Assembly: GCA_963758495.1 (NCBI GenBank)
Contig: CAVWVI010000003.1
Location: 320,001 to 384,000 of the forward strand
DNA from: Oligoflexia bacterium
GTDB lineage: Bacteria > Bdellovibrionota > UBA1018
Direction: 5' to 3'
Length of the DNA stretch: 64,000 nt
The notes under the pieces were generated by a model. It was not told the DNA's origin, ran no database searches, and saw only the letters and a program-made list of their open reading frames with translations. Within the stretch, counting starts at the first letter, position 1. Each line of letters opens with the position of its first letter. The position numbers and the translations under genes were made by a program. Shown in pieces: positions 6,918 to 13,637 of the stretch.

Positions 6918-6967
6918 ACCGCCCTTTCACGGCGGTAACCGGGGTTCGAATCCCCGTGGGGACGCCA
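6918..6967 (+). other. 3' half of tRNA-Glu(TTC): att-site duplication, not a complete tRNA
   Basis: accgccc-TTTCAC-ggcggtaaccggggttcgaatccccgtggggacgcca has anticodon arm, T arm (GTTCGAATC) and CCA end, but the upstream sequence offers no D arm or 5' acceptor strand. Confidence 0.88.
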
Positions 6968-7003
6968 TTTTATAATGATGATTGTTTAAGTTTTGAAACT
7001 GAT

Positions 7004-7030
7004 AACCCCGCGATAATAAGCGGGGTTTTT
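7004..7030 (+). terminator. Intrinsic terminator downstream of the tRNA fragment
   Basis: aaccccgc-gataataa-gcggggtt-ttt. Confidence 0.8.
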
Positions 7031-7097
7031 CATTTGTGGGAACGCAAGTTCAGCTTGCGTTTGGAAAGCAGGAGTTTCGTTTGGGATAGGAGAAAGA

Positions 7098-7463
7098 TTA
7101 GAGTTTTGAGGAATTTTCGGACTGGTAATGCTGACGTGGGAGCCAGGTATAGTGGAACGAAAATGAGGGTGACCAACCGAGCTGGCTAAGGATCGACGCA
7201 TCGTCGCCACGGACATGAATATGACCGCAAGTTTGTTTGAGCACTCGAGATGGGATTGATTTACCGGTAGCAGCTTGGGTAGCTAATTTTACGAGCTTAC
7301 GGATATATTCAGAACTCAGATTACGATTGTGCTCACATTGGGGATCTAGGAATAGCGGTGTTTTTGGGAAGCTCGCTTTGGGCTGGATTTTTGTATATCG
7401 ACTTTGCCAGTGCTCAATAAACCGCCTGTAAGAAAGCAAGCGATTTTTGATACACATCTCCAA
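7098..7463 (-). pseudogene. Possible degenerate tyrosine-recombinase C-terminal fragment
   Basis: PLFL..RNLSSEYIRKLVKLAT..GKSIPSRVLKQTCG..LSQLGW..FHYT resembles box II spacing but has no intact HxxR; next to the att site. Confidence 0.3.
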
Positions 7464-7514
7464 TCACCTTTGTTGATATTTTAATGATCAACGCTGGCAT
7501 CCCTGGACTCCGCA

Positions 7515-7610
7515 CTAGCTCAGAATCTGATCCGTAAGTGAAATCGACGCAAATACGATCTTCAATAGAGGGACCACTTTTTTATGATTGCTTTTCAATT
7601 GTCTAAATAG
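7515..7610 (-). pseudogene. Downstream piece of a split PIN-domain gene
   Basis: Joining at the shared TCTA to 12755-12802 gives in-frame MEIVVADSNVFVALYLFRQLKSNHKKVVPLLKIVFASISLTDQILS*, with TAG where the PIN Glu is expected. Confidence 0.5.
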
Positions 7611-7879
7611 AAAGTCCGTTTAAACACGCCTTCATTCGCCTGTTTGGGCCTCATTGCTGAACCGCGGATAGTATTGTTCGGCTTCAGGTCCAGAGTAACG
7701 GTTTTTAGGGCACCCTTAAAAGTGCCCCGTTACTCTGGACTCGTCGCCTGTGAAAAAATCGTCGACCGAACAATACGTATTTTTGAATACAGCCCGTGCC
7801 ACGTAGGTAGGTGGGACATCTTGCGACGCCCACCCCCATTAGAACTGTGCATGCTCTATTAAAGCACACAGCTCCCTCA

Positions 7880-9193
7880 CTAACACCGGACGGACTCCGG
7901 TTGTATCCTCGAGCTAAAGAACAGATTTCGCATACGAGGGTTTTCGGGAAATCGCACTTTTTCTAAGACTTTAGAGAATCTTACCCAATCAAAACTCCGT
8001 TTCTGACTTCGTCGATTTAGGTATTTGAAAAGCAATTTCTTCACTTCATGAATGAACTGATTGACTCGCTTCTCATTATCATTGATCGCAAAGTAGTTGA
8101 TGTACCCTTCTGTCACCGATTTCATTCGAGGAAGAAGGTTCTTATCGTGACGGTGATTTTGAATATGGCTTTTGAGTTCTCCTATTTTCTTGCGAAAACG
8201 CTTGGGACACGTGCGCCGTTTCACACGCCAGAACCTCTTGCTATCCTTCTTCCTAATTGAGATACCCCAAACATGAAGAAATCCCAAAAAGGTGAAGGTT
8301 GGCATTTCGGAACCTTTCAGAGCATAGCTGGCTGCGGTTCTTTGTCCGCATGCCACAATTTTAGTCTTCTCCTCATTGAGACTAATTCCAAATTTATTTA
8401 ACCTTTCTGTGAGTGATTTGAGAAATGTCTCTGCATCCACGAGGCTTTCGAAGGTGAAAACCGCATCGTCCGCGTAACGCACTATGCGTACTGTTCCTCG
8501 GTAAGACTTCTCGTTGATCCAGCAGAACCACATATCTATCACATAATGAAGGTATAAATTTGAGACCAGAGGTGAAAGAATTGAGCCCTGTGGAGAGCCT
8601 AATTCATTTCGCACTGGTATTCCTTTCTCATTCAAGGTGGGAGCTTTGAGTAGTTTCATAACTAATCTCAAGAACCTTTCGTCCGTTATCTTCATTTTGA
8701 GAAAACGAAGTAGTGGTTCGTGAGGGATTGTGTTGAAGTATTTTCGCAAATCAATGTCCAGTGCTGCAGCACATTTCCATCGCATCAGGTGCTCATTTAA
8801 GGCAATTAATGCCGTGTCACATCCCCTCTTGGGTCTGAATCCGTGGGAGCAATTCAGGAACCATGGTTCATATATTCTCTCAAGAATTCTTCGTACAGCT
8901 TCTTGCACAATTTTGTCTTCAAAACAAGCTATGGCAAGAGGTCTGGTACTCCCGTCAGCTTTCGGAATCTCTCGAATCCTAGAGGCTTGAGGATGATAAC
9001 TCCCTCTGCGAATTTTAGTTAGAAGACCTGTCAAATTCCCATTGAGATTCTTTCCGTATTCCTCCTTTGTTATTCCATCTATTCCCACAGCTTTGTTTCC
9101 ATCAAGGCTGTGATAACATTCGCGTAGGACTTCAAGATTAATAATATGTCCAAGGTTATTGAACACCGCCTTTCTATCCTTTCTTTTACCCAT
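7880..9193 (-). CDS. ltrA: Group II intron reverse transcriptase/maturase (native N-terminus displaced to 10725-10809 by IS insertion)
   Basis: KAVGIDG, IPKADGSTRPLAI, SHGFRP, DIDLRKYFNTI, GSPQGSILSPLVSNLYL, RYADD, FTFLGF; the first five residues MGKRK come from the IS inverted repeat. Confidence 0.92.
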   Translation of the reverse strand: MGKRKDRKAVFNNLGHIINLEVLRECYHSLDGNKAVGIDGITKEEYGKNLNGNLTGLLTKIRRGSYHPQASRIREIPKADGSTRPLAIACFEDKIVQEAVRRILERIYEPWFLNCSHGFRPKRGCDTALIALNEHLMRWKCAAALDIDLRKYFNTIPHEPLLRFLKMKITDERFLRLVMKLLKAPTLNEKGIPVRNELGSPQGSILSPLVSNLYLHYVIDMWFCWINEKSYRGTVRIVRYADDAVFTFESLVDAETFLKSLTERLNKFGISLNEEKTKIVACGQRTAASYALKGSEMPTFTFLGFLHVWGISIRKKDSKRFWRVKRRTCPKRFRKKIGELKSHIQNHRHDKNLLPRMKSVTEGYINYFAINDNEKRVNQFIHEVKKLLFKYLNRRSQKRSFDWVRFSKVLEKVRFPENPRMRNLFFSSRIQPESVRC

Positions 9194-10724
9194 TTATACC
9201 TATGTGTCATAGTACCAAAAATTGCTAAATAATCCTTCGAGTTAGCCCTTTCGAAGGAGGGAGCAATGGAAAAAAATTGGATTGCAGAAGAGCTGGCCGA
9301 AGTAGATTTTGGGGATGCTCGTCTCACCGCAAGATGCTTGCAAGTTGGCACAGATTTTCTGAGTTGTCCCACCGCTTCAACAAATAAGGCAAGTGGAAGC
9401 TGGGCTGGAGCAAAGGGGGCATATCGCTTTTTCGACAATGAAAAGGTAATGTGCGCCGAGATGTTGGAGATTCATGCCAAAAAGACAGCAGACAGAATTT
9501 CTCAACTCCATAAGCACCGACCTGTATTGGTTATTCAAGATACTACTGTTTTAAACTATGCAGCCTTTCAAAGTTTAGAAGGGGTGGGAACTTACGCGGC
9601 AAAAGTAAGGAAAACAAAAAAATCGAGTTATATAAAAGCTCTCATGATGCATTCGAGTTTTGCTATTCGGGAAGATGGGTTTCCTTTAGGGTTGCTTGAT
9701 CAAAAGCTCTACAATCAAAAAAGAAGAAGGAAGAAAAATATTCAACATCATCTTCCAATTCAAAAGAAGGATAGTTTCCGTTGGCTGGAATCAGCTCAAC
9801 ATATTTCTAAGTTCATAGATAGGGATCGTGCTTTAATACATGTCTGCGATCGTGAGGCGGATATTTTTGAATTTTTCGATGAAGTGAAAAAGTATAATCA
9901 TTTTTTCTTAGTAAGAGCTGCATCTGACAGAGTTATAGGTGAAAAGTATTGGAAAGCAGACGGACATCTTTGGGAAACAATGGGTGAGCAAGAATTGCAA
10001 GGATTAATCGAAGTAGATATTCCTGCAAAGAAGAAAGATCCGGCAAGAAAAGCAAGCTGTGAAGTTCGCTTTGAAACTGTTATATTTCCCCCTCCTTTCC
10101 GATCCGCAAACGTTAACGCAAAAAAGCTTGAAAAAGTAGCAGTACAAGCGATCTGGGTTAAAGAAGTAGGTGCTCCTCGGGGAGTAGAGCCATTGGAATG
10201 GATGCTCTTAACGAATATGCCGATATCTTCTTTCGAAGAAGCGTTAGAAAAAATAAACTACTATTCATTAAGATTTCAAATTGAGACCTATCATAAAATT
10301 CTCAAGTCTGGATGTCGCATTGAAGAGAATCGATTTGAAAAATCCGAGAATTTAAAAAAATGTCTAACGCTTAAAAGTATAGTCGCAATTCGTCTTTTTC
10401 AACTGACCTGGGAAGGTCGAGTAAACCCAGACAAACCATGCTCAGAAGTGCTTTCCGAATCTGAATGGAAGGCACTCTATTGCTATATTCACAAAGTAAC
10501 CGAAGCACCTAATACACCTCCCTCTACTCAAGAAGCTATCTTAGAAATTGCAAAGCTTGGGGGATTTCTTGCCAGGAAGCATGATGGCGAACCCGGACCA
10601 ATAGTGATTTGGAGAGGGTGGGAGGAATTAATGAGAATCAAACGCATGTATGAAATTTTTCATCACCTATTGCCATTAGATAATGGCCCCAAATGGAGCG
10701 GGGCGATATATGGGTAAAAGAAAG
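9179..10724 (+). mobile_element. IS4-family (IS50/Tn5-like) insertion sequence, 1546 bp
   Basis: Terminal IRs ctttcttttacccatttat (9179) / atatatgggtaaaagaaag (10724); 10-bp direct repeat cctttctatc at 9169-9178 and 10725-10734. Confidence 0.93.
9266..10717 (+). CDS. IS4-family Tn5-like transposase
   Basis: FGDARL, AYRFFDNEKV, IQDTT, VCDREADI, WMLLTN, YSLRFQIETYHKILKSGC (YREK), IAKLGGFLARKHDGEPG. Confidence 0.95.
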   Translation: MEKNWIAEELAEVDFGDARLTARCLQVGTDFLSCPTASTNKASGSWAGAKGAYRFFDNEKVMCAEMLEIHAKKTADRISQLHKHRPVLVIQDTTVLNYAAFQSLEGVGTYAAKVRKTKKSSYIKALMMHSSFAIREDGFPLGLLDQKLYNQKRRRKKNIQHHLPIQKKDSFRWLESAQHISKFIDRDRALIHVCDREADIFEFFDEVKKYNHFFLVRAASDRVIGEKYWKADGHLWETMGEQELQGLIEVDIPAKKKDPARKASCEVRFETVIFPPPFRSANVNAKKLEKVAVQAIWVKEVGAPRGVEPLEWMLLTNMPISSFEEALEKINYYSLRFQIETYHKILKSGCRIEENRFEKSENLKKCLTLKSIVAIRLFQLTWEGRVNPDKPCSEVLSESEWKALYCYIHKVTEAPNTPPSTQEAILEIAKLGGFLARKHDGEPGPIVIWRGWEELMRIKRMYEIFHHLLPLDNGPKWSGAIYG

Positions 10725-11514
10725 CCTTTCTATCCCCTCGCGATCTTTGCTCTACTCGGTCTAGTTTTGTTGGCAGGTCTAAGTGGGCCCTATGCTGAGT
10801 GGCTCGCATCCTGTTTCTCTTTTCCGATTGTTAGTTACTGGGGCCCTTCCCTCCACGGTCATTACTCGCTTCCCAGGTACTACAACCCCTCGGTCATCCC
10901 AAAGCTCATCACACCTCACTTAGGTTGCATCCGTTGTAAGGCATTACAGTATCCTACTGAAGTTTGGGACTTCCCAAGTTGACTCACTGGTCTCTCCACA
11001 CATGCCAGGCTCTTTGACTCCGCTGGGTCCCGAGAGTCTCGCTTTAACGACTGCCAGGATTTAGGCTTCCATCTTGTCAACGACGTCGCCCATTTCAGAA
11101 ATTCATCAAATTGTCGGAGCTCTTTCACTTCACGCTTTCGCATTCCGGCCTATGTGGTTCGCTCCATACGCTTGGTGCGCCCCGTTGCCGGGGCTGGTCA
11201 CCCAATGTTCGCTATGACATAGAGTAGCTACCTCCTTTGTCAGCAGGACTCACACCTGCTAGACCAGTGGCCCTTCGCTTGGCGCACTGACAATTTTGGA
11301 TATAATACGGGGGCGTGCCAGTCGCTACCTTTGGGCCTGTCTTATCGTTAGACGACCACGCTTCCTAATGGGCCTCATCCCCCATCCCAAGCAATCAGTA
11401 TCCCTTCCAGAGATCTTCCACTGACCTTCAGTTTGAACGTCCTACAAGGAGGAACAAATTCGGTCTTCAGGATACGCCTATTTTCCATGCGTAATCAGAT
11501 TACTTGAAATGTTT

Positions 11515-12558
11515 TCAAACGTCTTTATTTAGCATTTTACGAAATTGAGCTTTCTCCTCTTGTTGCTTTTCATAGTCATCTTGATAAGTTCCATTATTCT
11601 TAAGAAGGGCTATACTGAGTGCCGCAATTTTTCTAGCTAGAGCCCTTTTAGCGTCCTGATAAGGAATCTCTTTTCTTTGTTCTTCGTAATAATTTCGTAA
11701 GAACCCTTCACTTCTCATTGCACTTTCGGCTGCTCCTAAAAAAACTTCTTTTAGATCTGCCCTTCCATGAATTTTTTTATTTCCATAGATTTTTCCATCA
11801 CTCATTTGGATATGTCTTGCCAACATACAATAAGCCCAGAATTGGTGTTTATTCTTAAAACGGTGCGGTGTGCAAACTACAGCTGTGATAATACTTGCTC
11901 GAACCGTACTAATCCCGGGAATAGTCATGAGATTTTTAATAGGTTTATATTTTTTAGAATTACGCTGAAGAACCTCACGGTATTCTCGTTTTCTTTTCTC
12001 TAAACCATCAATCTGCCAATAAAGATTCTCAGCAACAAACCGTGCACTCTCATGAGACAGTTCTTTTAATCGGTCTCTCGTTTTTTCATAAAAATCTGTT
12101 TGTGATGTATCGATCGCCTCGGATCTAAATACTGCCTTCAGTCTATTCTTAGTTCGAATGATTTCTTCTACTAAGGCCAAATAGCCGTACACTAGAACCC
12201 TCAGCTGGATCCAGTGACTTTCATCATGATAAACGGCAACCAAATGCCCCGTTCTAAGTTCCTGAGCTAAATGTAGAGCATCTCTAAAGTCTGTTTTTGT
12301 TCCCTGTTTTTCAGCTACATAAACAGGATTACAAACTACCAGGTGATCTACCTCTTTTTTTAGTATGATATACAACCACTGAGCCAGATGCATTTCTTCA
12401 AATGTCAGGAACTTCTTCCCCTTAATCTTTCTTATGAATCCAAGTAAATTTGCCTCTGTAGTGGCAAAATTTTGGCGATCAATATTTTTCCCTTTTTCAT
12501 CCACGACTGCGACGGTTGTTGTTGCTGCATGTGCATCCATTCCAATATAATAGTTCAT
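11515..12558 (-). CDS. IS110-family DEDD recombinase/transposase
   Basis: YIGMD, TFEE, KTDFRDA (DEDD); TIPGIS; QMSDG serine motif; ALARKIA; SD aggaggg. Confidence 0.92.
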   Translation of the reverse strand: MNYYIGMDAHAATTTVAVVDEKGKNIDRQNFATTEANLLGFIRKIKGKKFLTFEEMHLAQWLYIILKKEVDHLVVCNPVYVAEKQGTKTDFRDALHLAQELRTGHLVAVYHDESHWIQLRVLVYGYLALVEEIIRTKNRLKAVFRSEAIDTSQTDFYEKTRDRLKELSHESARFVAENLYWQIDGLEKRKREYREVLQRNSKKYKPIKNLMTIPGISTVRASIITAVVCTPHRFKNKHQFWAYCMLARHIQMSDGKIYGNKKIHGRADLKEVFLGAAESAMRSEGFLRNYYEEQRKEIPYQDAKRALARKIAALSIALLKNNGTYQDDYEKQQEEKAQFRKMLNKDV

Positions 12559-12754
12559 AACAACGTTCCCTCCTTGGCACGCTGGTTAGACTGGTTGAAA
12601 CTACTTTACGAAGCAGTTTCTATTATACCACTCCCCAGATTGAGGCCCATTGAGCGATTAGCCCACAAAGCTTACGGTCTTAGTACCGCAGCTCTGAGGG
12701 GACGTTGCTTTCTTACATTGTCGCTAGTGATGGTTGGACAGTACAGCTTATAGC

Positions 12755-12802
12755 TAGATATAAAGCGACAAATACATTTGAATCGGCGACAACGATTTCC
12801 AT
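12755..12802 (-). pseudogene. N-terminus of a PIN-domain gene cut by the IS110 element
   Basis: MEIVVADSNVFVAL matches the PIN beta1-Asp motif; its ATG directly follows the upstream stop (TAG-ATG). Confidence 0.55.
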
Positions 12803-13204
12803 CTAGAGTAGCCGCTGCAGCTCTTCAGTAGTTAAATTAAGAAGTTTTAAAGCCTCGATTTTACCAATTACTTTGCGTCTAAGGGCTTTAATAACAGTCT
12901 CTTCTAAAATTTTATCAAGAGGAACTGACTTTGGACTATATTCTTCGGGTCGATACCCTAATTCATCAGACTCATCCATTAAGCGATTTTTTCAAAAATC
13001 AGAAAATTCATTGAACTTGGGTTCTGAAATCTTGTTCAGATCTCGAAGACTGAAACAAATCATTAGAAAACTAACTTTAAACCGTTTACTCAGTCGAACT
13101 ACATCTCTCGAAGTAACATCTCCAGACAGAGATAGCCCCATTTCGTCGAAAGTTTTTCGCAAAAGATCTACCGCCCACCTAAGACATTTGCTACGCTCTT
13201 TCAT
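12803..13204 (-). pseudogene. C-terminal remnant of an ImmA/IrrE-like (COG2856) protein with an internal stop
   Basis: DVVRLSKRFKVSFLMICFSLRDLNKIS resembles the la..F.VS...l..l motif; same frame continues past TGA at 12992 to ..EALKLLNLTTEELQRLL*; no HExxH region left. Confidence 0.45.
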
Positions 13205-13214
13205 GATGAAGATC

Positions 13215-13637
13215 ATGAATACTTGGCAGTTTTTTGCCTTTGGCTCCGCGTTCTTTGCGGCGTTGACTGCTATTTTTGGCAAAATGGGTGTGAGCGGCAT
13301 CAACTCCGATCTCGCAACCCTAATCCGAACAGTGGTGATCGTCTTCGTGACTGCTTTTGTAGTGAGCCTTCGGTCTGAATGGCAGCGATTGGATTCAATT
13401 TCACCTAAGACCATCCTATTTTTGGTTCTCTCGGCAATCGCAACTGGGCTTTCGTGGTTATGTTACTATCGGGCTCTTCAGATGGGCCCTGCCTCGCGGG
13501 TTGCCCCAGTGGATAAACTCAGTGTCGTCATGGTGATGCTATTGGCTTTTATTTTTCTAAAAGAAACAGTGGGCTTGAAGGAAGTGATTGGCGGCTGTCT
13601 GATTACAGCGGGGGCAATCATCATCGCATTAGCTTAA
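13215..13637 (+). CDS. EamA/DMT-family small transporter
   Basis: SAFFAALTAIFGK, ATLIRT, TGLSWLCYYRALQMGPASRVAPVDKLS; start moved from 12873 to MNTWQ. Confidence 0.9.
   Translation: MNTWQFFAFGSAFFAALTAIFGKMGVSGINSDLATLIRTVVIVFVTAFVVSLRSEWQRLDSISPKTILFLVLSAIATGLSWLCYYRALQMGPASRVAPVDKLSVVMVMLLAFIFLKETVGLKEVIGGCLITAGAIIIALA

Follow-up and report, generated by a model that had tools for sequence, protein, structure and literature searches.

An IS4-family element within a group II intron within the predicted bridge RNA of an IS110-family element in an Oligoflexia bacterium

The DNA analyzed here is a stretch of 64,000 nucleotides from an Oligoflexia bacterium (GenBank assembly GCA_963758495.1, contig CAVWVI010000003.1, positions 320,001 to 384,000), referred to below as the window. 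Unprefixed positions are those of the window, and coordinates elsewhere in the assembly carry the prefix C1, C3 or C4. The window contains a nest of three mobile layers, in which an IS4 element lies inside a group II intron that in turn lies inside an IS110-family element. The features of the nest and its flanks are the following:

7098..7422, minus strand: right flank, 3' portion of a gene resembling tyrosine recombinases (109 aa aligned with C3:67119-67874 at 55% identity)
7423..12723, minus strand: IS110-family (IS1111-like) element, both CG core copies included; identity with three other genomic copies ends there
7427..7439, minus strand: right sub-terminal inverted repeat, 13 bp
7629..7801, minus strand: predicted 3' part of the bridge RNA (intron exon 2), including a long hairpin; 3' limit approximate
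7636-7643, minus strand: putative left-donor guide
7796-7801 with 7645-7653, minus strand: putative donor-loop inner stem
7802..11287, minus strand: group II intron, starting GTGCG and ending CG (empty site; RF02005; DV/DVI fold)
7880..10809, minus strand: reverse transcriptase (RT)/maturase gene of the intron, 457 codons, in domain IV (TIGR04416, 306.9 bits, cut-off 300)
9179..10724, plus strand: IS4-family (Tn5/IS50-like) element, single copy in the assembly
9266-10717, plus strand: IS4 transposase, 483 aa (NF033590, 393 bits; PF14706, PF02281)
10890..10892, minus strand: J2/3 of the intron (CGA); gamma, the C at 10892, pairs with the last base of the intron, the G at 7802
11074..11079, minus strand: EBS1 (UGACAA) in a hairpin loop, pairing 6/6 with the last six bases of exon 1 (11288-11293)
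11288..11389, minus strand: predicted 5' part of the bridge RNA (intron exon 1), from flank covariation, alignment and helices; 5' limit approximate
11289-11297, minus strand: putative right-donor guide
11322-11331, minus strand: putative left-target guide, in the target loop
11360-11368, minus strand: putative right-target guide, in the target loop
11515..12558, minus strand: IS110 DEDD recombinase, 347 aa, open frame (PF01548 and PF02371 over cut-off)
12705..12717, minus strand: left sub-terminal inverted repeat, 13 bp, perfect complement of 7427-7439
12724..12802, minus strand: left flank, short frame, its first ~16 codons weakly PIN-like, without continuation
12803..13198, minus strand: frameshifted IrrE/ImmA-like remnant, a lead only (Atlas 0.94 to a cluster with PF06114 on 49% of its members)

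The assembly comprises five contigs (3.66 Mb) and is 92% complete. A BLAST search of positions 7000-13500 against it yielded three further copies of the outer IS110 element. The C4 copy (C4:24032/27772) contains the intron and lacks the IS4 element; a copy near 1.44 Mb of C3 (C3:1437511-1439221, with ends at C3:1437513/1439220) contains neither; and the third, near 0.40 Mb of C3, retains only its 5' half and is cut by an IS1380-like element. The intron-less copy and the empty sites that the earlier note had proposed to look for are therefore found in the same genome, in the 1.44-Mb and C4 copies, and they show the order of events that it had read from the sequence: first IS110, then the intron, then IS4. 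Its nest had four layers; the inner three stand, each with an empty site in this genome, and the fourth, a PIN gene as outermost host, does not. The window element measures 5.3 kb as loaded, and about 1.8 kb without intron and IS4.

Identity among the IS110 copies stops at 12726 and at 7422-7424, and the CG cores of the window element lie at 12722-12723 and 7423-7424. The ends had previously been placed at two TCTA copies (12755-12758 and 7608-7611). However, each of the other two full-length copies contains the TCTA at 7608-7611 internally and lacks the piece left of 12726, so that neither boundary is tenable; the circle junction predicted from a TCTA core (ggactt-TCTA-gctata) falls with them, as the element runs between CG cores. 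The circle junction motif was absent from the assembly. The 11-bp inverted repeat (about 11364-12658) at which other copies might instead have ended is no element end either: it consists of a conserved motif of the predicted bridge RNA (11369-11377) and an antisense copy of it in the left end. CG is found at both junctions of the window and C4 copies, and CA at the right junction of the intron-free copy. An uninterrupted copy of the left flank of the latter, the end of a TnpB element on C1, reads on into CG, which indicates that the CG belongs to the target; the empty target of one left flank thus reads LT-CG without interruption. A relative present in nine copies has the same end architecture, with a TG core at 9/9 right and 8/8 readable left junctions.

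An IS110 element bounded by the TCTA copies would lie within a PIN gene that its excision restores, a reading to which we give almost no credence. A profile was built from nine PIN frames of this genome, with 500 shuffles as control. On it, the first 16 residues of the proposed peptide score 1.6 bits, a value reached by 2/500 shuffles (they outscore the other 498), and an IrrE-like remnant does lie upstream of the proposed frame; against this, the proposed C-terminal half scores like shuffled sequence (-0.2 bits, 168/500 as high), and the rejoined peptide reaches only 3.1 bits (7/500) and has no Pfam match in the HMM comparison that the earlier note had suggested. Neither half matches a Pfam or PHROG family. 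Moreover, the other copies hold the supposed right boundary and the C-terminal half internally, without the left piece: this half is the 3' end of the IS110 element itself. When the true flanks are rejoined, a stop follows two codons past the core, and what lies on the right is recombinase-like sequence instead of the remainder of a PIN gene. For the 58-aa remnant, no homologue was found in 300 genomes of the phylum, in longer proteins or in plasmids. It is possible that the left flank is the start of a PIN gene that followed the IrrE-like remnant and lost its body. That remnant, claimed before to be ImmA/IrrE-like and directly upstream, is plausible as a lead; it has no Pfam or PHROG match.

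On the right, the intact gene C3:67119-67874 has weak XerC matches (E 0.0045). Just left of the nest, positions 6920-6967 are a 48-bp copy of the 3' end of tRNA-Glu(TTC), identical to C3:295445-295492; it forms the attachment site at the end of a 31-kb integrated element that carries integrase-like, ParA and replication-like genes. In each of the three full-length copies, the flank on the left seems not to match the one on the right, and 0/12 left-right joins among the copies restored an evident gene; the left flank of the intron-free copy continues differently on C1. This suggests recombination between copies, recombinase-driven deletions, or misassembly. At C3:402041-406229, two identical 1653-bp IS copies are separated by 44 bp; next to them, a 300-bp segment is repeated in tandem about three times, and this segment also forms the right flank of the intron-free copy.

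The gene at 11515-12558 is confirmed as an IS110 transposase by PF01548, PF02371 and NF033542, the last by a narrow margin (141.2 bits, cut-off 140). Its residue 87 is Thr, where nearly all relatives have Ala. It also aligns, over residues 119-342, with the TIGR-Tas model NF052498 at 39.9 bits (cut-off 100). The broad features of the IS110 family are present: DEDD RuvC-like and Transposase_20 domains, a 2-bp core at the junctions and in the empty target, and predicted bridge RNA guides that match target and donor, those of the right target with weak support. Several features point to the IS1111 group, namely perfect sub-terminal inverted repeats of 13 bp (11-13 bp expected), a long non-coding 3' region (about 605 nt downstream versus 165 nt upstream of tnp), and the guide order right target, left target, right donor, left donor, with the top-strand match 5' of the bottom-strand match. 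The extensions of 7 bp on the left and 3 bp on the right that are typical of IS1111, on the other hand, can be counted here only if one base is used twice; judged by the donor guide and the core, the repeats are spaced 8 bp apart in the predicted circle, and they lie 5 and 1 bp inside the cores. The C-terminal motif of the recombinase reads MLARHIQMSDG (pattern P---SDG), not GL-P----S/TG, and the best named IS110 proteins in plasmids are less than 30% identical to it. The locus brings to light a divergent clade of IS110 in which the guides covary well and three or more natural cores occur (AG, TG and CG). Genome G386 (loci L105-L121) contains nine copies of a related IS110 element with a TG core and at least three target-guide variants, which makes it well suited to defining this clade.

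Sequence comparison identifies the 3' end of the element as encoding a putative bridge RNA of the IS1111 type, because from relative to relative the guides change in step with the flanks and the element ends. The comparison set comprised twenty-three metagenomic relatives (56-66% identity) plus the genome hits, which have in common a structured motif downstream of the recombinase. RNAalifold predicted a nested target hairpin with two-sided changes in 11/15 pairs. The donor-loop helix was not predicted by RNAalifold alone and was drawn by analogy; with it added, 95.8% of cells are paired, against at most 42.5% in slid controls, and 14/20 pairs show two-sided changes. Four unpaired segments behave as guides, as defined in PMC11208160 (partial text); the order with the top strand first is that of IS1111 in PMC11187229 (likewise in part). 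In permutation tests, which count related elements as independent and hence overstate significance, the left-target guide matched the flanks at 68/96 positions (permuted mean 44.9, maximum 61 of 10,000; 28 elements examined, 12 distinct with readable left junction and guide), the left-donor guide matched right end plus core at 70/77 (permuted mean 52.9, maximum 65; 11 distinct of 18 elements), and the right-target guide covaried weakly (38/72 versus a permuted 29.9, p 0.04). The right-donor guide pairs 5/5 with the left end in 10/14 elements, two of them by co-change, and the right-target guide is mismatched by the targets in this genome. The left end (12571-12655) holds reverse-complement copies of both conserved motifs of the predicted bridge RNA; among 13 relatives the first occurs in some form in 10/13 and the second in 5/13. 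They could serve antisense control or be a second recombinase-binding site.

The intron-free copy lacks 108 bp (window 7644-7751) between two 8-bp repeats, and with them the 3' arm of the donor-loop stem. This arm is present in 29/33 relatives by a strict pattern, and the long arm of the window copy recurs at locus L064, which argues that the deletion is derived. The absent segment is flanked by two copies of the donor-matching 8-mer. As judged from the sequences, no copy in this 92% complete assembly encodes a contiguous complete bridge RNA, and, since the intron-free copy has lost its stem, a complete guide would require splicing here.

The insert within the IS110 element is fixed by the intron-free copy as 11287..7802. 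It has the features of a group II intron: a GUGYG start, a match to the domain I-IV model, and folded domains DV and DVI, the bulged A lying seven bases before the intron end. Rfam RF02005 covers domain I with 118.3 bits at 11008-11252, and without IS4 the intron is 1930 nt long. It has no endonuclease domain. The intron with its GTGCG and DV/DVI ends had been recognized before, with its 3' end placed at 7803, one base short. An end at 7803 (AC) was rejected for the window copy, as the insert includes the G, which all 33 readable relatives lack at this point. The usual 3' end is AY (PMC4238363, partial text) with a purine at gamma; here the end is CG and gamma is C, so that the pairing is kept but flipped (C-G). 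Gamma-gamma' is Watson-Crick in the window copy and at 14/14 other loci with both parts read: G-C or A-U in distant loci, C-G in L043 and U-A in L016. These counts derive from 58 RT loci, of which 22 have a readable J2/3 and several are near-duplicates; in the relatives the intron ends were set by register, not by empty site. By the same register, the closest intron relatives (L016, L043, L050 and L051) also end in a purine (CA or CG), with a complementary gamma in the two where it is readable. The CG end with its flipped gamma pair thus appears to be a variant within the group II family, in an intron clade that by its sequences ends in a purine. Boundary variants were reported in Dai 2008 and Candales 2012, according to PMC4238363 (seen in part), and we found no purine-ended group II introns in the literature searched, of which coverage was incomplete.

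In three relatives the same EBS1 loop is likewise complementary to the 5' exon (6/6 in L016 and in L034, 5/6 in L043), and the EBS2 pairing of the window intron comprises at most 4 bp. While the ribozyme in the window looks intact from its sequence, both intron RT genes in this genome are damaged. IS4 splits the one in the window near codon 26. From an in-frame ATG at 9193, within the IS4 repeat, a frame of 437 aa stays open, without the first 25 residues and without a conserved N-terminal stretch. The C4 intron has a stop at RT codon 159 and a G at gamma opposite its terminal G, a mismatch. Elsewhere in the genome, at C1:323549-326345 (L102), a TnpB remnant adjoins a further, group II intron-like RT gene (568 aa), which may mark a second intron within an IS605-type element.

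The IS4 element had been described earlier as an insertion in the intron RT with inverted repeats and a 10-bp duplication, and the C4 copy bears this out with an empty site in which the duplicated sequence occurs once. Its DDE transposase, terminal inverted repeats (19 bp with one mismatch) and target duplication (9169-9178/10725-10734) are those of the IS4 family (IS50/Tn5-like).

What the earlier note had missed is that the intron interrupts the predicted bridge RNA. According to the alignment, it is the donor-binding loop that holds the intron: a single base separates the right-donor guide from the insertion point, the donor-loop stem follows immediately, and the right-donor guide forms most of the intron's EBS1 target. 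One could imagine an intron lineage specialized on the bridge RNAs of IS110 elements, profiting from a guide that can change only together with the end of the element, and the EBS1 of the window intron would indeed pair with at least 5/6 bases at the site in 20/21 elements tested, the window's included. We nevertheless consider this improbable: the site is uninterrupted in 33/33 readable relatives (38 loci examined, 26 distinct), among 58 loci with a related RT an IS110 match occurs only at this genome's own loci, and the closest introns (65% and 52% RT identity) carry other EBS1 sequences and have other targets. A search beyond these loci gave 836 related RTs; in viral contigs no RT relative was found, and 36/36 motif matches lacked IS110. 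Since all 33 relatives are uninterrupted, the intron in the putative bridge RNA looks like the event of one lineage and not a specialized intron class. The literature searched, again with incomplete coverage, describes no bridge or seek RNA that a group II intron interrupts.

Based on these comparisons, we favor, with a probability of roughly 70%, a pile-up in three steps that left the intron in the donor loop of the bridge RNA, with the whole guide available by exact splicing and the family slowed or frozen. First, an IS1111-like IS110 element would have inserted at a CG core by bridge recombination, guided by RNA from its own 3' end. Next, a group II intron without endonuclease domain would have reverse-spliced into the donor-binding loop, its EBS1 reading the right-donor guide plus one base. 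Finally, IS4 would have jumped into the RT gene of the intron. Transcripts are presumed to span the recombinase gene and to continue into the 3' end. Positions 12622-12630 read TGnTATAAT, similar to an extended -10 element, although this is not among the sites of a promoter scan of 7300-12900, which gave 8 sites versus 9.6 expected. In unspliced transcripts the target loop would be kept, with 1.9-3.5 kb separating the two halves of the donor loop, and a whole bridge RNA would then be obtained by exact splicing. The order, boundaries and lesions, as well as the probable guides and the intron's position among them, can be read from the sequence.

Several observations bear on whether the element kept moving after it had been loaded. 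There are two loaded copies at unrelated sites, window and C4; their introns diverge no more than their IS parts (2 events in 1930 nt versus 4 events in about 1.8 kb); and the intron-free copy is empty although its homing site is intact. The intron might thus be a tolerated passenger, the loaded IS110 having transposed as one unit to yield both copies, and mobility having been kept by splicing, by a target-only guide, or by RNA from another copy. We regard this alternative as a real contender, of clearly lower probability than the three-step pile-up. Independent homing into two resident copies would look identical, however, and the single informative substitution, the derived state of recombinase codon 87 common to the window and the truncated copy, fits co-transposition as well as double homing. 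A fuller version, in which the intron targets the donor guide, splicing yields the bridge RNA, exact by virtue of the flipped gamma pair, and thereby gates recombination, with the loaded element moved as a unit, is put forward tentatively and is rather doubtful.

Returning to the three-step pile-up, the main doubt concerns the donor loop. In IS621, donor-loop mismatches are poorly tolerated (PMC11208160) and both loops are used for insertion and excision (PMC11208160, PMC13626964). On the other hand, an 82-nt target-only seekRNA supports movement of the IS1111-type ISEc11 (PMC11187229; all three in partial text), and the donor loop may therefore be dispensable. IS4 has cut one RT, the other ends at codon 159 in an intron with a gamma mismatch, and the intron-free copy is devoid of its donor-loop stem. 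In this genome, therefore, the family has probably slowed down or come to a halt, and its mobility would now be low. By analogy, this slowing probably resembles the restraint of ISRm2011-2 by RmInt1.

Introns in IS elements are already known from RmInt1; unusual here are the putative guide RNA as host site and the intron end. As described in the accessible part of PMC4238363, RmInt1 of Sinorhizobium meliloti is likewise a group II intron that homed into an IS and has a non-consensus 3' end, and mobility of the IS then depends on splicing, much as proposed here. However, RmInt1 interrupts the transposase frame and ends in CC with a purine gamma, whereas here the recombinase gene is intact, a non-coding guide RNA is split, and the intron ends in CG with a pyrimidine gamma. 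ISEc11 and ISPa11, IS1111 elements with a seekRNA or bridge RNA (PMC11187229, PMC11208160; partial texts), have in common with the window element a 347-aa DEDD recombinase, 13-bp sub-terminal inverted repeats, a long 3' non-coding end, a top-strand guide 5' of the bottom-strand guide, and a 2-bp core. They differ in the 7+3 arrangement described for IS1111, compared with repeats 8 bp apart in the predicted circle here, and in the motif GL-P----S/TG instead of P---SDG; only the guide RNA of the window element holds an intron. In IStrons, which combine a group I intron with a TnpB omega-RNA, splicing and guide-RNA production compete or interact in one transcript, as they might here; in IStrons, however (bioRxiv 10.1101/2023.11.20.567912 and PMC13521648, in part), intron and element are one and the same and the guide is lost on splicing, while here a separate group II intron lies in the guide, which splicing would make whole again. 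Twintrons of bacteria and archaea, and introns amid other mobile DNA (PMC4424553, in part), are also nested elements with an order readable from their boundaries, and many bacterial intron copies are inactivated; here, in contrast, three unrelated classes of element are involved and a guide RNA hosts the intron.

Nesting by itself is ordinary. An intron in the putative guide of an RNA-guided recombinase, on the other hand, would be a natural test of the disputed need for a donor loop in IS1111 elements, that is, of the bridge model versus a target seeker only. If splicing gates the guide, the arrangement would represent a ready-made switch for bridge recombination.
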